A DNA stretch of 6,826 bases, taken from the IMG/VR virus record IMGVR_UViG_2693429599_000001, positions 1 to 6,826 of that record. The stretch is one strand, 5' to 3'. The notes beneath the pieces are model-generated. The model searched no databases. It was not told the DNA's origin and saw nothing but the letters and a program-made list of their open reading frames with translations. The DNA comes from a virus (Duplodnaviria; Heunggongvirae; Uroviricota; Caudoviricetes). Numbering within the stretch: position 1 is the first letter of the stretch; each line of letters starts with the position of its first letter. Made by a program: the position numbers and the translations under genes. Of this stretch, positions 1 to 6,826 are shown in pieces.

Positions 1-1535
1 TTACGCAGTGCGCCTTCCTGCTGGTCAAACAGGTCAGTCCCCACCGCCTCATAAGCGGACTGAAACTCTTTAAAGTCACCGCCGAGGTTGTCCTGCATGA
101 TATTTACCAGCTCGGCGGTCTTCCCGTCTGAGGCTTTAAACGCAGCGGTCAGTTTGTCCAGCTTTCCGGTTGAGGCGGCAGTCATCAGCACGGCGGCGGC
201 TGAGCTGGCCTCCTCCCCGAAAATAGTTTTCATGTATTCAGCCTGCTGGGCAGTACCGAGCCGGTTTTTCTCAAAACTGGCCTGCATTTCTTTCAGAATG
301 GTAAATACTGGTCGGGTATTCCCCTTACTGTCTGAGGTTTTTACGCCAAGCTCTTTGAGTGCATCCCATGCTTTTCCCGTTGGTGCCTGCAGGCGACTTA
401 ACACGGCACGGCTTCCCGTCCCCGCCATTGAGCCTGTGATTTTTGCATCATGCAGCGCCCCGACCATTGCGGCGGTTTCTTCAATGCTGACACCGGCATT
501 TTTTGCCACAGGTGCGGCATAGGTCAGCGCATCGCTCATGCCGTCAAAATCGGCGGCGGTTTTGTTCATCGTCATGGAGAGAACATCCCCGATATGAGCG
601 ACCTTATCGTTTGAAAGCTGAAAGGCGGATTTCATCCCCATCAACAGGGCGGCGTTTTCTTCCATCGTGCGACGGTTCGCCAGCGCCATATTCAGCGTGA
701 CCGGCGTTGCCGCCTGAATGGCATCAACATCCCCACCGGCTTTTGCAATAATAATCTGCGCACCGGCTGCATCATCTGCCGAGGCTGCGGTATTGTCGCC
801 GAGCTGACGCGCCTGCTTGCGTAGTGCAGCCATTTCGGCGGAGTCTTTTGCCACTCCGAGCACAGCCTGTAATTCTGAGTTTTTCTGCGCAAACTCATAA
901 CCGGGCATCAGCAGCTTAACTCCGGCCATCGTTCCCGCCGCCGCAATCCCCACACCGGCAGCGCCCACCGAGGCCATATTTCCGGCCAGTTCCTTTCCGG
1001 CCTGATAACGCTGTTTTACTGCGTTAAGTTTTGCCTGTTGCGCACTGACACGCGCCAGTGCGTCGCGCTGACGATTAAGCTGTGCGGTGGTTTCACTGAT
1101 ACGGTTTTTCAGCCCCTGCTCATCATGTGCAAGATTGCGGGTATTAATTCCCACAGCGGCCAGTTCCCGCTGCTGGCGTTTAACGGAATCCGTCAGGCGG
1201 TTATATTTCGCCTGTAAGTCCTCCGCCGCTCGCTTTGCTGATTCCAGCACTTTCGCCTGAGCACGGGTCGGACGTTCGGTGTTTTTAAACTGTGTGGCAA
1301 GGGCTTCGGCCTCCTGCCGTGCCTTTTCAAGTGCATGACCAGTCACGGCAAGCTGTGCACTGGTCTTGCGAAATCCCTCAATACGGGAGGCGTGACCGTT
1401 CAGCTCGCGCAGTGATTTTTGTGTTTCCCGGATATCCCCCGACAGCGACTTACTCGCTGTGCGGATGGATTTAAACGGGCGGGATGCCTGGTCAACAGCC
1501 CTGAGCAATACCTGTAATTTTACATTGTTACTCAT
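1..1535 (-). CDS. T: Tail tape measure protein, P2 gpT-like; N-terminal 511 codons, gene runs off the window at position 1
   Basis: Minus-strand ATG at 1535-1533 translates MSNNVKLQVLLRAVDQASRPFKS; the frame stays open to the window edge (the tta at 1-3 is out of frame). Its ATG overlaps the E' stop (AATGAGTAA), and it sits downstream of E/E' as in P2. Coiled-coil-like A/Q/K/R-rich sequence. Confidence 0.85.
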   Translation of the reverse strand, partial: MSNNVKLQVLLRAVDQASRPFKSIRTASKSLSGDIRETQKSLRELNGHASRIEGFRKTSAQLAVTGHALEKARQEAEALATQFKNTERPTRAQAKVLESAKRAAEDLQAKYNRLTDSVKRQQRELAAVGINTRNLAHDEQGLKNRISETTAQLNRQRDALARVSAQQAKLNAVKQRYQAGKELAGNMASVGAAGVGIAAAGTMAGVKLLMPGYEFAQKNSELQAVLGVAKDSAEMAALRKQARQLGDNTAASADDAAGAQIIIAKAGGDVDAIQAATPVTLNMALANRRTMEENAALLMGMKSAFQLSNDKVAHIGDVLSMTMNKTAADFDGMSDALTYAAPVAKNAGVSIEETAAMVGALHDAKITGSMAGTGSRAVLSRLQAPTGKAWDALKELGVKTSDSKGNTRPVFTILKEMQASFEKNRLGTAQQAEYMKTIFGEEASSAAAVLMTAASTGKLDKLTAAFKASDGKTAELVNIMQDNLGGDFKEFQSAYEAVGTDLFDQQEGALR

Positions 1536-1955
1536 TCGTGTTTCCGCTTCGCCGGAGCGCCTTTTCGCGCCATGTGATAAGTTCGGTCAGGCTCATGGGA
1601 TACAGTTCTGATGGCGGCCAGTGAAATATCACTGCCACATCCGCCATCAGGTCATCGACCGAGAGATTTTTCGGAAACGTCACTGCACCGAGTTCGGCGA
1701 CAAAAAACCGACCACCTTACCGGCCAGCGCCACAAGGTCAGGCAGTTCCAGCGCGGCGACTTCCTGCTCGGTCAGCATCGGTGCCGTCATGCGCGGCAGC
1801 ACCTTAATCAGTGCATCGACTTCGGAGTTTGCAACCGCAGCCAGACTGACACCGCGTAGCGTCCCGGCATTGGGTTTCATCAGCGTGACCTGTTCGATAA
1901 CCTGCTCACCACGTTTGACCGGATTGTCCAGGGTAATGACATTTTCTTTGTTCAT
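1528..1955 (-). CDS. E+E': Tail assembly chaperone gpE+E', product of a programmed -1 frameshift (142 aa predicted)
   Basis: After the slip at GGT TTT TTG, the -1 frame stays open for 57 codons (VAELGAVTFPKNLSVDDLMADVAVIFHWPPSELYPMSLTELITWREKALRRSGNTNE) to a TAA at 1530-1528. That gives 85 + 57 = 142 aa, the length I recall for P2 E+E'. Confidence 0.75.
1680..1955 (-). CDS. E: Tail assembly chaperone gpE (91 aa)
   Basis: ORF-track protein MNKENVITLDNPVKRGEQVIEQ...GFLSPNSVQ; its position between tube and tape measure, its length and the slippery site near the 3' end match P2 E. Confidence 0.9.
   Translation of the reverse strand: MNKENVITLDNPVKRGEQVIEQVTLMKPNAGTLRGVSLAAVANSEVDALIKVLPRMTAPMLTEQEVAALELPDLVALAGKVVGFLSPNSVQ
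1701..1707 (-). other. Slippery heptamer T_TTT_TTG for the E/E' -1 ribosomal frameshift
   Basis: Plus strand caaaaaa at 1701-1707 is TTTTTTG on the minus strand, in the 0-frame context GGT TTT TTG at codons 83-85 of E. The P2 and lambda G/GT-type chaperone frameshift sites are of this kind. Confidence 0.75.
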
Positions 1956-2011
1956 GGTTTTCTCACTTCTGAATCAGGGTTAACCGGCCAGCCAGGCTGA
2001 CCGGATGAAAA

Positions 2012-2530
2012 TCACAGGCCGATATTGCGGCGGTGTTGCTCCAGCCGGTCGACGCCGTTCACCTTCTCAATCATGTTGATGGTGTCAATTTCGACCAGCT
2101 CCTTACCGTCCATCGTCAGCCGGAAATAGGTGCAGACCACGGAGATTTTCGACTCAGTGTCTTCTCCCTGTTTACCCTCGCCGGTGTCGATTTCTTTCTG
2201 ACGTCCACGCATGACCACTTCGACGGCCACCGTTTCGCCGGTATCATCGCGCTGGTAAGAGCCTGCAAAACGAATCGGCACGGCATCCACGCCGGTTGCG
2301 GCGTAAAGCTCCCAGATAACCGAATCCGGGAAGCCCCCGAGCGACCACTCCATTGACAGCGCATCGTCATCAAGGCCGAGGTCTACCGGTGCGCTGCCGT
2401 TCATCCCCGCACCGCGATAGTTTTCGAGCTTACGGGTCAGTTTTGGCAGCGTGACGGACTTTGCAACGCCCTGATAGCTGTAGCCGTTCAGAAAGACGTT
2501 CATTAACTTGAGTTTGCGTGGCATTGCCAT
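2012..2530 (-). CDS. FII: Tail tube protein, P2 gpFII-like (172 aa)
   Basis: ORF-track protein MAMPRKLKLMNVFLNGYSYQGVAKSVTLPKLTRKLENYRGAG...; GGAG ribosome-binding site 8 nt upstream of the ATG; lies immediately downstream of FI, and its size matches P2 FII. Confidence 0.9.
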   Translation of the reverse strand: MAMPRKLKLMNVFLNGYSYQGVAKSVTLPKLTRKLENYRGAGMNGSAPVDLGLDDDALSMEWSLGGFPDSVIWELYAATGVDAVPIRFAGSYQRDDTGETVAVEVVMRGRQKEIDTGEGKQGEDTESKISVVCTYFRLTMDGKELVEIDTINMIEKVNGVDRLEQHRRNIGL

Positions 2531-2542
2531 CGGTCAGGCTCC

Positions 2543-3733
2543 TTAATTGCTGTTAACCGAGGTGACCAGATTTGCCAGGTATTTATCGGTAATACGCTGG
2601 CGCAGGGTCAGGTTTTCGAGAGGAGGCACCGGTGTATAGTCGTAGTCGATATACAGTTTTCCGGCCTTGAGGGTTTCCGCATCGTTGGATTCTTCGCTGA
2701 ACCAGCAGGTCGCATCCACGATATAGCCGTTTGTTTTCAGCTCACGGAATTTGGCATTGATGCCGTCAACGATGTCGCGAATCAGCGTTGCGGTGATGGG
2801 CTTGTCCACCGCCCACATGTGCGCCTCAGCCATCGTGTCGGCCAGCACCTGCGCGGTGCGGGTGTAGTTTTCAAAGAGGAACAGCGGGTCATCAGAGCAG
2901 GTACGGTTACCCCAGAAGCGGAAACCATCACGGCGAATCAGCGTTGTGACGCCTGACTCATTCAGCAGGTCAGCATCGGTGCCGGACTCCTGCAAATCCC
3001 AGAATACAGAGGCACTGATGCCGGTAACACCGTTTACCCCGACATTGGACAGCGTTTTATGCCAGCCCTGCTCCTGGTCGATTTTAGCGCGCAGACCCAG
3101 CGCACGGGCGGTGGCATACGCGGTGGCGGTGGTGCTGCTGACCGTATCCCATGCGAGGAAATCCGGCCAGATGACCATCAGCTCACGCTGGCTGAAATTC
3201 TGGCGGTAGGCTTTCACCTCGGAAATGGTTTTACAGCCCCATGCGCTGATATACCCGAAAGCGCGCAGCTTCTGACAGACTGATGCCAGTGCAACAGCCA
3301 CCTCTTTGGTGTCCAGTCCCGGCACGCCGAGAATACGCGGTTTAACACCGGTTACCGACTCCGCCGCCAGCAGGGCTTTCAGTCCGGTATACTGACCGTT
3401 TTCGTCAGTGGTGCCGATGATATTGGAAACGGTCTGCGCGAGTTTCGTTTCTTCGTCGTCGCCGGTGCCGTCTTCAACACGCACGACAACGGTAACCGGT
3501 TTTGACTGGTCAGCGATGGCCTGCAACGATGCCGCCAGCGTGCCTTTTTTACCGGCCTTTGCAATTGCGCTCTGCACATTGGTAATCAGCACCGGTTTAT
3601 TGAGGGGGAAGGTTTCCGCATCCGCATCGCTGGCCGTACAGACCATGCCGACAATGGCAGTGGATACGGTGGAAATGACGCGGGTGCCGTCGTTAATCTC
3701 CAGCACCTGCACGCCGTGATGATAGTCACTCAT
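2543..3733 (-). CDS. FI: Contractile tail sheath protein, P2 gpFI-like (396 aa)
   Basis: ORF-track protein MSDYHHGVQVLEINDGTRVISTVSTAIVGMVCTASDADAETFPLNKPVLITNVQSAIAKAGKKGTLAAS...; a GGAG ribosome-binding site precedes the ATG; length and N-terminus match P2 FI as I recall it. Confidence 0.93.
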   Translation of the reverse strand: MSDYHHGVQVLEINDGTRVISTVSTAIVGMVCTASDADAETFPLNKPVLITNVQSAIAKAGKKGTLAASLQAIADQSKPVTVVVRVEDGTGDDEETKLAQTVSNIIGTTDENGQYTGLKALLAAESVTGVKPRILGVPGLDTKEVAVALASVCQKLRAFGYISAWGCKTISEVKAYRQNFSQRELMVIWPDFLAWDTVSSTTATAYATARALGLRAKIDQEQGWHKTLSNVGVNGVTGISASVFWDLQESGTDADLLNESGVTTLIRRDGFRFWGNRTCSDDPLFLFENYTRTAQVLADTMAEAHMWAVDKPITATLIRDIVDGINAKFRELKTNGYIVDATCWFSEESNDAETLKAGKLYIDYDYTPVPPLENLTLRQRITDKYLANLVTSVNSN

Positions 3734-3792
3734 CCGTTTAACTCCGTGGTTAATGGGTGAGTGATATTTTCAGTTGTGCCGGAGATGTCAGG

Positions 3793-4386
3793 CTATTTGT
3801 CCCGGTTGGCTAAGGGATGACACAATTTATTCTTTGTCGCTGATGAGGGGAATTTTTTATAGAGCGTGGACAGGCCAATATCAAAAATCAGCGCCACGCG
3901 TTGACGTGATTCACCCGCAGCCAGCAACCGTCCTGCCTGTTCCCACTCACTCGCGGTGAGCTTCGGACGTCTGCCACCAATACGACCTTTGGCTCTGGCC
4001 GCTTCCAGTCCGGCGCGAGTCCGCTCAACAATGAGTTCTCGCTCCATTTCAGCCAGGGCACCCATCACATGAAAGAAAAAACGCCCCATCGGCGTGCTGG
4101 TATCAATGGCATCCGTCAGGCTGCGAAAATTAATGCCGCGTTCGCGCAGCTCCTCAACCAGAATGACCAGATGCCGCATACTACGCCCCAGCCGGTCCAG
4201 CTTCCAGACTACCAGTGTATCCCCCTCCGATAATGTCCTGAGCAGTTTTTTCAGCCCCGGCCTGTCGGACTTCGTGCCGCTGATTTTATCCTCAAAAATC
4301 AGCTCACATCCTGCGCACTCCAGCGCGTTACGCTGCAATTCCGTGTTCTGGTCATTTGTTGACACGCGTACATAGCCAATAAGCAT
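3793..4386 (-). CDS. Serine DNA invertase, Hin/Gin/Cin/Pin family (resolvase-type catalytic domain plus C-terminal HTH)
   Basis: Translation MLIGYVRVSTNDQNTELQRNALECAGCELIFEDKISGTKSDRPGLKKLLRTL...VVWKLDRLGRSMRHL...GINFRSLTDAIDTSTPMGRFFFHVMGALAEMERELIVERTRAGLEAARAKGRIGGRRPKLT has the active-site Ser in VRVSTNDQ. I prefer the ATG at 4386-4384 (GGGGGA ribosome-binding site 5 nt upstream) to the ORF-track start at 4392. Confidence 0.9.
   Translation of the reverse strand: MLIGYVRVSTNDQNTELQRNALECAGCELIFEDKISGTKSDRPGLKKLLRTLSEGDTLVVWKLDRLGRSMRHLVILVEELRERGINFRSLTDAIDTSTPMGRFFFHVMGALAEMERELIVERTRAGLEAARAKGRIGGRRPKLTASEWEQAGRLLAAGESRQRVALIFDIGLSTLYKKFPSSATKNKLCHPLANRDK
4279..4303 (-). promoter_or_regulatory. 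Candidate recombinational enhancer element (Fis-site-like palindrome) inside the invertase 5' coding region
   Basis: Imperfect palindrome gctgatttt-N7-aaaatcagc at about +83 to +107 of the invertase gene; a second A/T-tract element ctgagcagttttttcag lies at 4238-4254, about 45 bp away. Hin, Gin and Cin enhancers lie in the 5' part of the invertase gene with two Fis sites about 48 bp apart. Position-based inference only. Confidence 0.25.
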
Positions 4387-4413
4387 GAGCATCCCCCTGA
4401 ATAAAAACCGGAG

Positions 4414-4803
4414 ATGATGCCAGTTGCCCGTTATCTCTGCATTTTCATAAACGTTGGTTTGGGGGAATTGGCTCTGGCTGGCGCAACAACCGGCGCTATG
4501 TTGGTGAATGGGTATGTAGCAATTCCATTAATTATTTCTGGCGTTCGGAGACCACTTATTATCCAGTGGGGAGTGGGGCAGTTTGGGGGAAGTCTGGGGG
4601 ATGATGCGGGATATTTAAACAATTTCCCTTTCGCTTTTCCGTCGGCGTGCTACGTGATGGTTGCCAGCCACGTGGGGCATACACCTTCGGGTGCCGGAAT
4701 ACTATCTGCTTCCGCAATCACAAAAAGCGGCTTTCGTGGTTTTTCCAGCGTAGTGACTGCCGCAAATCCTGTATCGGGCTGTTATGTTGCTATAGGAGGG
4801 TGA
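4414..4803 (+). CDS. Tail-fibre C-terminal (tip) cassette, invertase-proximal duplicate; probably silent unless joined to a fibre 5' part by recombination
   Basis: From 4454 it encodes the same 116 C-terminal residues as the fibre ORF ending at 5771 (LGELALAGATTGAMLVNGYVAIPLIISGVRRPLIIQWGVGQFGG...SGCYVAIGG). The ATG at 4414 directly abuts a GGAG (no spacer) and lies in the invertase upstream region, so independent translation is doubtful. Confidence 0.5.
   Translation: MMPVARYLCIFINVGLGELALAGATTGAMLVNGYVAIPLIISGVRRPLIIQWGVGQFGGSLGDDAGYLNNFPFAFPSACYVMVASHVGHTPSGAGILSASAITKSGFRGFSSVVTAANPVSGCYVAIGG
4442..4467 (+). other. Putative invertase crossover site A (26 bp, 12-2-12): ttttcataaacg tt ggtttgggggaa
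   Basis: Imperfect dyad with AAAC-type half-sites resembling hix/gix/cix/pix sites; lies 55 bp upstream of the invertase start; the 429-bp repeat begins at its central TT. Confidence 0.6.
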
Positions 4804-4882
4804 TGTGTTTTTTAGTCCATCTTTAAATATTTTTGTGAATCCTGCGCTTAAGGATGACTACATCAATGTAAATTCATGGCCA
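4454..4882 (+). repeat. Direct repeat copy 1 (429 bp, identical to 5422-5850)
   Basis: Base-by-base comparison of the two blocks; the identical antisense ORFs 4431-4622 and 5381-5590 in the ORF track reflect the same repeat. Confidence 0.95.
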
Positions 4883-4885
4883 TGA
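4805..4885 (+). pseudogene. Truncated tail-fibre assembly gene fragment (first 26 codons of the tfa at 5773, then a stop at the repeat boundary)
   Basis: GTG at 4805 with an AGGAGG ribosome-binding site, identical to the 5773 start; the frame hits TGA at 4883-4885, exactly where the repeat ends. Confidence 0.55.
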
Positions 4886-4901
4886 AGGCGTACTCATTGC
4901 G

Positions 4902-5771
4902 GTGGCGAACTGCCCGGAAACGTACAAACCGCAGTTGCAGGAAGGCAGTGGTCGTACCCAGACTATCCGCATGATTCTGGTTGTCACGAATACCGAAGCC
5001 ATCACGCTGAAAATCGACCCGTCGGTGGTACTGGCGACCCGTAAATACGTGGATGATAAAGTCCTGGAATTAAAGCTGTATGTGGATGACCAGATGAGAA
5101 ACCACATTGCCGCACAGGATCCTCATACCCAGTATGCACAGAAACATAATCCGACATTTACCGGAGAACCAAAAGCGCCGACGCCTGCCGCAGGAAATAA
5201 CACCACGCGGATTGCGACCACTGCGTTTGTACAGGCCGCTATTACCGCTCTGATTAACGGTGCCCCTGACACGCTGGACACACTGAAAGAAATTGCCGCA
5301 GCTATCAACAATGACCCGAAATTCAGTACCACCATTAACAATGCGCTGGCAGGTAAACAACCGCTGGACAATACGCTGACTCATTTGAGTGGAAAGGATG
5401 TAGCTGGTCTTCTCACATACCTTGGTTTGGGGGAATTGGCTCTGGCTGGCGCAACAACCGGCGCTATGTTGGTGAATGGGTATGTAGCAATTCCATTAAT
5501 TATTTCTGGCGTTCGGAGACCACTTATTATCCAGTGGGGAGTGGGGCAGTTTGGGGGAAGTCTGGGGGATGATGCGGGATATTTAAACAATTTCCCTTTC
5601 GCTTTTCCGTCGGCGTGCTACGTGATGGTTGCCAGCCACGTGGGGCATACACCTTCGGGTGCCGGAATACTATCTGCTTCCGCAATCACAAAAAGCGGCT
5701 TTCGTGGTTTTTCCAGCGTAGTGACTGCCGCAAATCCTGTATCGGGCTGTTATGTTGCTATAGGAGGGTGA
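4902..5771 (+). CDS. Tail fibre protein, 5'-truncated copy or alternative cassette (shaft region plus C-terminal tip); first ~100 codons of a full fibre gene absent
   Basis: Frame is open from 4872 with no ATG; first GTG at 4902. Encodes VLIAVANCPETYKPQLQEGSGRTQTIRMILVV...KYVDDKV...HNPTFTGEPKAPTPAAGNNTTRIATTAFVQAAITALINGAPDTLDTLKEIAAAINNDPKFSTTINNALAGKQP, which from memory resembles P2 gpH around residues 100-160 and the conserved enterobacterial side-tail-fibre motif. Crossover site B lies at codon ~170. Confidence 0.75.
   Translation: MANCPETYKPQLQEGSGRTQTIRMILVVTNTEAITLKIDPSVVLATRKYVDDKVLELKLYVDDQMRNHIAAQDPHTQYAQKHNPTFTGEPKAPTPAAGNNTTRIATTAFVQAAITALINGAPDTLDTLKEIAAAINNDPKFSTTINNALAGKQPLDNTLTHLSGKDVAGLLTYLGLGELALAGATTGAMLVNGYVAIPLIISGVRRPLIIQWGVGQFGGSLGDDAGYLNNFPFAFPSACYVMVASHVGHTPSGAGILSASAITKSGFRGFSSVVTAANPVSGCYVAIGG
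5410..5435 (+). other. Putative invertase crossover site B (26 bp): ttctcacatacc tt ggtttgggggaa
   Basis: Right half-site and core identical to site A, left half identical at 8 of 12 positions; same orientation as site A; lies inside the fibre ORF (encodes ...LLTYLGLGEL...). Confidence 0.6.
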
Positions 5772-5850
5772 TGTGTTTTTTAGTCCATCTTTAAATATTT
5801 TTGTGAATCCTGCGCTTAAGGATGACTACATCAATGTAAATTCATGGCCA
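5422..5850 (+). repeat. Direct repeat copy 2 (429 bp, identical to 4454-4882)
   Basis: Base-by-base comparison; starts at the central TT of site B and ends 78 bp into the tfa at 5773. Confidence 0.95.
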
Positions 5851-6207
5851 GATGATGCTGTTGAAGTTGATGAGCAGGTGTATATTGAGTTTTCCGGATT
5901 ACCGCCGAAAGGAAAAATCCGTATCGCTGGGGAAAATGGTTTTCCTGCATGGTCTGAAATTCCACCACCAACGCATGAGGAACAGATTGCCGCAGCCGAA
6001 TTGAAAAAACAGCAATTGATTAATCAGTCCAACGAATATATGAATACCAAGCAATGGCCTGGTAAAGCGGCTATTGGTCGTCTGAAAGGTGAGGAACTGG
6101 CGCAATATAATTTGTGGCTGGATTATCTGGACGCACTGGAACTGGTTGATACCTCCAGTGCTCCAGATATTGAATGGCCTACGCCTCCGGCAGTTCAGGC
6201 CAGATGA
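5773..6207 (+). CDS. Tail fibre assembly protein (Tfa, P2 gpG or Mu U-like chaperone) for the plus-strand fibre cassette
   Basis: GTG start 5 nt after AGGAGG and 1 nt after the fibre stop; C-terminus ...WLDYLDALELVDTSSAPDIEWPTPP shares the conserved Tfa C-terminal motif with the 6179-6772 protein. Confidence 0.85.
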   Translation: MFFSPSLNIFVNPALKDDYINVNSWPDDAVEVDEQVYIEFSGLPPKGKIRIAGENGFPAWSEIPPPTHEEQIAAAELKKQQLINQSNEYMNTKQWPGKAAIGRLKGEELAQYNLWLDYLDALELVDTSSAPDIEWPTPPAVQAR

Positions 6208-6772
6208 CATCCGGCGCGGTGCTCGTATCTGTTGCCGTCACCGCGTCAATGTAATCAAGCACGGCGTTAAGCCGGGTGGTTTCTGCCTGCGTCAGCTTCC
6301 GCCCGGCCTGTAATTTCAGCTGAATCAGGCTGATGGAAGCCATTGCAGCATCAATCAGTGACTGGCGCTGTGCTTCTGCCGCTTCTACTGCGGCACCGTG
6401 TTGTGCCTCAGTATCTGTCACCCATTTCTCACCATCCCATTTATCATATGGCGTTAACGGTGAAAGCGTGACATAACCGTTTTTGATGGCACCGATATAA
6501 TCCACTGTAACAGCTGCGCCATTTTCGATTGAGTAAACAGTCTCATTGCGATGGTCTTCTTCATGGCTCCATCCCTTACCTGTAAATACTGCCACTCTTC
6601 CCGGAATGTTTTCGCCAGGGTCAATACCAGTGGAACAGGCGGGCATACTTACGCCAGTATTAATATATTCATCAGACCAGCCCGTATACTCAGATGTTTC
6701 AGCATCATAATAAAAACAACGCATATCGCCCGGCACTGTAGCCAGCCCATTTTCATCAAAAACAGGTTTCAT
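6179..6772 (-). CDS. Tail fibre assembly protein (Tfa) partnered with the minus-strand fibre gene upstream
   Basis: ORF-track protein MKPVFDENGLATVPGDMRCFYYDAETSEY...LDYIDAVTATDTSTAPDVIWPELPEA; GAGGG ribosome-binding site upstream; converges on the plus-strand tfa with a 29-bp 3' overlap (6179-6207). Confidence 0.85.
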   Translation of the reverse strand: MKPVFDENGLATVPGDMRCFYYDAETSEYTGWSDEYINTGVSMPACSTGIDPGENIPGRVAVFTGKGWSHEEDHRNETVYSIENGAAVTVDYIGAIKNGYVTLSPLTPYDKWDGEKWVTDTEAQHGAAVEAAEAQRQSLIDAAMASISLIQLKLQAGRKLTQAETTRLNAVLDYIDAVTATDTSTAPDVIWPELPEA

Positions 6773-6826
6773 TATTTAGCCCTCACCAGAAAGTTAAATG
6801 CAATGTTACGTGGTCTGACGGCAATA
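6772..6826 (-). CDS. Extreme 3' end of the upstream minus-strand gene, presumably the expressed tail fibre (P2 H equivalent); partial, frame unresolved
   Basis: Two minus-strand frames are open to the window edge: one ends with TGA at 6785-6783 (...LPSDHVTLHLTFW), the other with TAA at 6774-6772 overlapping the tfa ATG as TAATG (...NFLVRAK). Gene order H then G is expected from P2. Confidence 0.3.
   Translation of the reverse strand, partial: IAVRPRNIAFNFLVRAK

Follow-up and report, generated by a model that had tools for sequence, protein, structure and literature searches.

The Gin, Cin, Pin and Hin switches, among them the Mu G, P1 C and e14 P segments, are the closest described systems to the locus considered here, and in all of them, as here, a serine invertase adjoins the invertible segment. 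Gin/Pin-type switches recombine at 26-bp sites (12-2-12) with an AAAC(C/G)-TT-GGTTT core. At the site, the constant N-terminal part of the fiber is linked to either of two C-terminal cassettes, and each cassette has its own assembly gene, with the two assembly genes convergent. These attributes are all found in the present locus. The canonical switch has a single constant region, which lies outside the invertible segment. Min of p15B is a multiple-inversion system, and in systems of this kind distinct cassettes supply extra C-termini. Among P2-like prophages, a locus with three inverted repeats is known from EPEC E2348/69 (PMC4272514).

The locus described here is a Gin/Pin-type fiber switch of a P2-like prophage, with nothing new in kind. 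Unlike the canonical switch, it also shows 179 codons of constant region between two sites of the same orientation, together with a duplicate of one cassette (Sv) and a truncated copy of that cassette's assembly gene (U). The reading that we favor, by a modest degree of confidence, is that this headless, duplicated arrangement is a false duplication that arose in the draft assembly or scaffolding of a culture of mixed orientation.

The tail end of a P2-like prophage

The window, meaning the whole stretch of 6,826 bp that was analyzed, is the entire contig CYFI01000057.1, which belongs to the draft assembly GCA_001283785.1 of E. coli. On it lies the tail end of a P2-like prophage, running on the minus strand from the tape measure gene (1-1535, interrupted by the contig start) through gpE/E+E' (1528-1955), the tail tube (2012-2530) and the tail sheath (2543-3733) to a serine DNA invertase of the Hin/Gin/Cin/Pin type (3793-4392, 197-199 aa). 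The invertase has the resolvase domain (PF00239, E 3e-52) and the HTH_7 domain (PF02796, E 1e-12) of a Gin/Pin recombinase and lies adjacent to the switch. Next in the window come fiber-cassette sequences on the plus strand. Further along are U, the 144-aa tail-fiber assembly protein for Sv (5773-6207, plus strand; PF02413 Caudo_TAP, E 3e-35), and U', the 197-aa assembly protein of the alternative cassette (6179-6772, minus strand; PF02413, E 5e-27), which is convergent with U and overlaps it by 29 nt. The final 17 codons and stop of the alternative cassette, Sv', lie at 6773-6826 on the minus strand and are interrupted by the contig end. This piece is collinear with positions 11392-11445 of L005 (CP165086.1), the closest complete relative, and its reverse complement, translated by eye, reads ...IAVRPRNIAFNFLVRAK followed by the stop, which matches the C-terminus of the L005 H gene. 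Each cassette begins at a crossover site, replaces the fiber C-terminus only and is paired with its own assembly gene (Sv with U, Sv' with U').

Both ends of the contig fall inside prophage genes, the tape measure gene and Sv', and we infer that the contig was broken there by related prophage sequences located elsewhere in the genome. Among E. coli genomes with a match to the region, the median is two matching places, and some have the same cassette pair in two different prophages. In ETEC1703, for example, the pair is found in a P2-like prophage and in a prophage with a Mu/e14-like tail.

Among the relatives, a canonical locus consists of a single constant region with two cassettes and two inverted sites. 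In L002 and L005 the order is invertase-site-Sv-U-U'-Sv'-site-constant region. L001, L007, L009, L010 and L014 represent the other isomer, in which the constant-site-Sv arrangement is expressed. This joint is the usual expressed state and is seen in many complete genomes (matches H2-H7; L007, L009, L010, L014), and both isomers of the Sv cassette occur among complete genomes. All 10 of the long loci with an identical 197-aa invertase have the canonical order I-H-U-U'-Sv'-invertase-sheath, with the invertase beside the fiber cassettes. A second shaft copy was found in none of the canonical loci L001, L002 and L005 and in none of these 10 long loci. The family does include rearranged members, with deletions in L001, an IS-type transposase gene in place of the fiber genes in L011 and an aberrant inversion in L017.

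A headless constant region between two sites

The plus-strand segment 4883-5421 comes from the P2-type H tail-fiber gene of the prophage itself, of whose constant region, referred to here as the shaft, it forms the 3' two-thirds. It comprises codons 97-275 and is without the N-terminal 96 codons. Position 4883 is occupied by the last base of H codon 96, 4884-5421 are codons 97-275, and the crossover dinucleotide at 5422-5423 lies within codon 276. The initial annotation placed about 175 codons of conserved shaft upstream of the second crossover site (site B), in the same frame as the cassette beyond it. The conserved stretch and the shared frame were both found, and the exact count is 179 codons. 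The frame of the open reading frame (ORF) at 4902-5771 is closed upstream by a TAA at 4869-4871 and open from 4872. From 4884 it reads EGVLIAVANCPETYKPQLQEGSGRTQTIRM...GEPKAPTPAAG...NNALAGKQPLDNTLTHLSGKDVAGLLTYLGLGE and continues unbroken through site B into the Sv cassette, where it ends at the stop codon 5769-5771. From 4884 onward, the product corresponds to residues 97-391 of a 391-aa H-type tail fiber.

Hundreds of H genes in E. coli prophages match the segment at 98-100% nucleotide identity, which is far above chance. The nucleotide identity of the segment to the H gene of L005 is 99.8%, the shaft protein is 100% identical to residues 97-276 of L005 H, and the longer protein matches H of L001 at 291 of 296 residues. 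A domain search of the 4902-5771 product, which the initial annotation had called for, returned PF12571 (phage tail-collar fiber, N-terminal) at profile positions 96-150 only, with the first 95 positions missing, and PF21882 in the cassette part. Peduovirus, PSP3 and 186 fiber proteins match residues 1-60/110 of the 179-residue query, in agreement with the likeness to P2-type fibers proposed in the initial annotation. The fibers of P1 (S), lambda (Stf) and D6 match query residues 88-170 (GEPKAP...NNALAGKQP) at 57-76% identity, and P1 S, lambda Stf and P2-type H have this shaft segment in common. The H proteins of P2-like phages and prophages align collinearly with residues 97-275; in contrast to a P2 gpH-type fiber, residues 1-96 are absent.

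The missing 96 codons cover the greater part of the tail-collar domain at the N-terminus. Judged by its P2 gpH counterpart, this would be the end that attaches to the baseplate. There is no in-frame ATG at the shaft start, as had been noted initially, and the first start-type codon is a GTG at 4902. No sigma-70-like promoter site was found in 4380-5450. A functional H copy would have a start codon and the complete PF12571 profile (positions 1-150), and the segment has neither. Without its first 96 codons, an ATG or a promoter, the shaft fragment alone is not a gene, and a fragment without residues 1-96 cannot be a functional fiber.

The initial annotation had treated the plus-strand copy as an alternative cassette that extends upstream of its site. 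This interpretation has to be abandoned. In L005, H residues 97-276 lie outside the invertible segment, and the plus-strand copy is the constant region itself, held in a constant-site-Sv joint.

The segment could in principle come from elsewhere, as a chimera of two prophages or a capture from another phage, and the frequent presence of the same cassette pair in two prophages of one E. coli genome, as in ETEC1703, makes such a source conceivable. We regard a foreign or second-prophage origin as very improbable, and reject it on the 100% protein identity between the shaft and H of L005, which among complete relatives is the closest to the contig's left part. L006 also places the left part and the U of the right part in one phage type, and a different second prophage would not explain a constant/Sv joint with P2-type H. 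The view that the segment is no foreign fragment was already taken initially, and it is upheld in the relatives. In L005, the counterpart of 4882-5435 (554 bp, minus strand, 99.8% identity) is part of the fiber gene that directly adjoins the invertible segment on its right.

Two crossover sites are present in the window, both on the plus strand. Site A (4442-4467, 26 bp; TTTTCATAAACG TT GGTTTGGGGGAA) combines an invertase-side left half with an Sv-side right half, and site B (5410-5435, 26 bp; TTCTCACATACC TT GGTTTGGGGGAA) combines a fiber-constant-side left half with the Sv-side right half. By sequence reading and a pattern scan, the two share orientation and the 12-2-12 organization, and we take them to belong with the hix, gix, cix and pix family. 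They are the only sites in the window, and the inverted partner would fall past the contig end. In relatives the partner is at about L002 8540-8565, and in L005 the joint is at about 11835. The joint at site A also occurs in the canonical loci L002, L005 and L006, and the joint at site B also occurs in the expressed H genes of L001 and L007.

The central TT of each site opens one copy of a 429-nt direct repeat on the plus strand. Copy 1 (4454-4882) comprises the Sv cassette, which ends at 4803, and the first 78 nt of U. Copy 2 (5422-5850) comprises the Sv cassette and the start of the intact U gene; Sv here encodes the C-terminal 116 codons of H, with PF21882 and the stop at 5769-5771. The two copies are 100% identical, with zero differences, at a spacing of 968. 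Identity begins at the first base of the central TT, and the copies diverge exactly at 4883/5851, which places the start of the shaft at the repeat junction, as initially described. The H shaft follows copy 1, where U stops after 26 codons at a TGA created by the junction (4805-4885; translation VFFSPSLNIFVNPALKDDYINVNSWP, then the stop), and U is intact after copy 2. The duplicated unit of 968 bp is therefore made up of H codons 97-275, a site, Sv and U codons 1-26, and it is because the contig carries this duplication that a headless extra copy of the shaft is seen.

The contig shows two joints that are mutually exclusive, invertase-site A-Sv and constant-site B-Sv. Positions 1-4882 are collinear with the invertase-side isomer (L002, L005), and L006 is 100% identical over 2049-4882 and then continues into an intact U. 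Positions 4882-6826 are collinear with the expressed isomer (L001, 98.9%). Taken singly, each half of the contig shows a normal joint, and the abnormality lies only in their being strung together. The two joints cannot both be present in one canonical molecule, so the extra copy is either a false duplication or a private duplication of 968 bp. The arrangement does not resemble a shufflon with distinct extra cassettes. The cassette after site A is 100% identical to the one after site B, with U cut after 26 codons, and in contrast to multiple-inversion systems the additional site would bring an identical cassette and no new fiber variant.

The junction at 4882/4883

The join at 4882/4883 was searched for at several lengths. 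A 251-nt junction probe, at a threshold of at least 80% coverage, found no place in 5,426 complete E. coli genomes, and none of nine matching phage records covered it. The junction 30-mer is absent from 185,579 GTDB species-representative genomes and 2.9 million viral contigs, and the junction 22-mer is absent from the GTDB species-representative genomes and from JGI metagenomes. The 289-aa ORF made by the junction is recorded on CYFI01000057.1 alone (GenBank CTZ01891.1, 'phage tail collar domain-containing protein'). The contig is listed for two samples, and we do not accept this as independent replication. Complete genomes also show two, the ORF has a single accession, and the two are probably one record entered a second time.

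At the junction, U nt 78 runs directly into H nt 288 with both genes oriented alike, and there are no Ns, no shared k-mer and an overlap of 1 nt. On the H side, nt 288 lies inside the longest invariant stretch, nt 253-341 (89 nt), in the first 756 nt of 10 H alleles, and an independent draft contig, L004, starts at H nt 313, 25 nt from the breakpoint. On the U side, the breakpoint is 9 nt inside a tfa core that begins at 5842 (4874 in copy 1) and is common to yfdK and hundreds of other tfa genes at 94-99%. With several related prophages present, such positions are where short-read assembly graphs branch and contigs end. The coincidence of the breakpoints with conserved stretches is suggestive and indecisive, at an estimated chance of about 10% on the H side and a few percent on the U side.

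Under the false-duplication reading, the sequenced culture, or genome, would have held the invertible segment in both orientations, and the sequences of the two isomers would have been laid in series without being collapsed. The join at 4882/4883 would be two contig ends abutting at a place of exact identity among related prophage genes. The real phage would then have the shaft region in a single copy, located to the right of the invertible segment and on the minus strand, and the invertase would swap Sv/U and Sv'/U' behind one constant fiber N-terminus, as in an ordinary switch. For other P2-like prophages, both orientations of the fiber segment are documented side by side in clonal E. coli cultures (PMC4272514). 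False duplications from unresolved sequence variants are a known class of assembly error (PMC9516828). There they are described for vertebrate assemblies, with two alternative flanks retained and the shared part written twice, as in this contig; the variants in the present case would be inversion isomers of a prophage. The contig has the marks expected of such an error, namely identical copies, a single draft record and breakpoints at graph-branching sequence.

Two points count against an artifact. A pure de Bruijn error cannot make this junction without reads, and with no Ns and a 1-nt overlap, a scaffolding or gap-closing step or chimeric reads must be assumed. The real rearrangements in related prophages (L001, L011, L017) also weigh on the other side. 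A literature search found no paper or pipeline for CYFI01 or GCA_001283785; our guess is a Velvet/SSPACE/GapFiller pipeline of the kind outlined in PMC5320598. The contig ends gave no help in fixing the assembler k, and this line was abandoned when the U-side and right-hand ends fitted no common value. A k of 55 or 67 would agree with H nt 342 and 354, and a k of 67 would agree with window position 67.

The main alternative is a real rearrangement private to this strain, in which a 968-bp tandem duplication was followed by an invertase-mediated inversion between the outermost sites. We consider this possible, at a probability that falls short of even. In the first step, the unit in the expressed isomer would be duplicated in tandem by illegitimate recombination; in the second, one ordinary inversion would act between the outermost sites. 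The joint of U nt 78 to H nt 288 is the exact novel joint of such a tandem duplication, from which one inversion gives the observed order, and the model would likewise give A an invertase/Sv pair of half-sites and B a constant/Sv pair, as observed. A junction free of Ns favors a real event, as do the rearranged members of the prophage family, and three-site P2-like loci exist in nature (PMC4272514). A GATGATG motif touches both breakpoints (GGCCA/GATGATG in U, GATGA/TGAAGG in H), which hints at a homology-sensing event. However, the observed junction is not the product that joining at this motif would give. The microhomology product would be GGCCAGATGATGAAGG, and the junction reads GGCCATGAAGG, with 5 nt missing and a 1-nt overlap. 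A simple microhomology join was rejected on this difference, and the presence of GATGATG at both breakpoints may be coincidental, both motifs encoding Asp-Asp.

Other observations also argue against a real rearrangement. Direct repeats of 429 bp are unstable, and fixation in an isolate should thus be rare. Neither the junction nor the 289-aa ORF occurs in any other genome, phage or metagenome record searched. An intact H would also be present, giving a two-copy inverted repeat at which a short-read assembler would be expected to break, at 4883. Two further origins for the junction were set aside. Recombination by the invertase at secondary sites is not supported by any 12-2-12 likeness around U nt 78 or H nt 288, which have one common base at the joint and no common central dinucleotide. 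A mosaic boundary at H nt 288 was rejected, with the frequent boundary in E. coli H genes being at nt 461-465.

Possible consequences for the fiber switch

If the rearrangement were real, the order of the locus would be invertase, A, Sv, U (26 codons), the junction, shaft (+), B, Sv, U, U' (-), Sv' (-), C, shaft (-) and H N-terminus (-). Such a locus would contain sites A and B in direct orientation and site C inverted, with the shaft as a 0.54-kb inverted repeat and a further, direct repeat of 429 bp. With three crossover sites and nested invertible segments, it would resemble loci of the EPEC E2348/69 type. The fiber switch would still work, through inversion between B and C or between A and C, and the extra shaft copy would be carried along with no function of its own. 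Recombination by RecA could act in two ways, with the shaft copies permitting inversion of the segment and the 429-bp repeat permitting loss of the duplication.

The inverted shaft homology, which the initial annotation had offered as a further route of inversion, exists only if the private 968-bp duplication is real. In that case an inverted repeat of 539-554 bp, at about 100% identity as judged from the 99.8% match in L005, would flank the interval from B to C. It is most unlikely that this homology is a maintained feature serving as a second, RecA-dependent inversion route. There is no conservation to point to, with canonical loci lacking a second shaft copy and the junction found in none of the 5,426 complete genomes, and the window itself shows a single shaft copy. 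We estimate that action by the invertase would be much more frequent than action by RecA on 0.5 kb. The arrangement also looks accidental, in that the shaft copy is accompanied by a truncated U and an unchanged duplicate of the cassette.

As an ordinary constant region within a well-known invertase switch, the element carries little biological weight. The false-duplication reading brings a caution for work on such loci. Invertible segments form mixed populations, and draft contigs can string both isomers together, creating apparent truncated gene copies, extra recombination sites and long repeats. It is possible, though less likely than not, that the contig is correct and represents a fresh evolutionary intermediate, in which a tandem duplication across a crossover site has been flipped into the invertible segment. 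If true, the locus would possess three sites, a second copy of one cassette to spare and an inverted shaft repeat of 0.54 kb. Such an event could seed the multi-cassette fiber shufflons of the Min-like, three-inverted-repeat kind, and it would bring an added RecA inversion route. It would then be of modest interest, as an indication that a fiber switch can gain sites and cassettes when a duplication spans one of its crossover sites.

An invariant stretch in the fibre gene

The tail-fibre gene H contains a stretch of 89 nt (H nt 253-341), encoding ...GFWIREIGLYDDEGVLIAVANCPETY..., that shows no variation across 10 alleles. Outside it, the same 10 alleles vary at 45 positions (756 nt compared). 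The stretch is equivalent to window positions 4848-4936, of which the window itself has only 4883-4936. Two independent draft contigs have starts inside it, namely L004 and the shaft part of the window contig.

Overlapping genes and a mosaic assembly gene

The tail-fibre assembly gene U has a sharp mosaic boundary at window position 5842 (4874 in copy 1 of the repeat). The sequence before this point is specific to the cassette, and from 5842 on it is 94-99% identical to K-12 yfdK and to the tfa genes of hundreds of genomes. Nine nucleotides at the start of the gene (window 5773-5781, GTGTTTTTT) are absent from the canonical locus L002. Gene callers annotate U as either 144 aa or 136 aa, even where the DNA is identical, and the real start codon is therefore uncertain. 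U (plus strand) and U' (minus strand) are convergent, and their 3' ends overlap by 29 nt (window 6179-6207), an overlap present in all canonical loci.

Elsewhere in the window, the gpE and tail-assembly ORFs (1528-1955, minus strand) overlap. A TTTTTTG run on the minus strand, which reads CAAAAAA on the plus strand, lies around 1702-1710, and we take it to be the putative programmed -1 frameshift site expected for P2 E/E+E'.

Decay and rearrangement in related prophages

Decayed copies are frequent among the related prophages of complete genomes. Internal deletions in one of them (L001, 3389-3857 and 9069-9641) have fused remnants of the S and V genes and truncated the sheath gene. In a second (L011, 8998-9702), an IS-type transposase gene sits in the expected place of the fibre genes, and the head region of a third, which lacks H, contains an IS21-type element (L015, 1571-3873).

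The fibre/sheath locus is rearranged in the complete genome of E. coli AR_0013 (L017, NZ_CP032204.1, 2701-7562). Here H is interrupted at about the crossover site and borders directly on the 5' portion of the sheath gene, which is inverted. This portion forms one inverted block with the recombinase gene, Sv, U, U' and Sv', and after the block comes the 3' portion of the sheath gene. The arrangement suggests an aberrant inversion in which one endpoint fell within the sheath gene, and for which the invertase possibly used a secondary site. The match row of NZ_OZ546943.1 is near-identical to that of L017, with equal coverage, identity and feature names.

A cassette pair common to two types of prophage

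The genome of E. coli ETEC1703 (NZ_CP122923.1) holds two unrelated prophages with the same Sv-U / U'-Sv' cassette pair, at 4731413-4734144 (L018) and 4931969-4935263 (L019). One of the hosts is a P2-like prophage and the other, at dusA, has a Mu/e14-like baseplate module. Each has a separate recombinase, and the U protein (WP_000466305.1) is identical between them. The shared pair represents an exchange of cassettes between phage types. Its presence in two prophages of one genome is also a source of repeats that breaks short-read assemblies.
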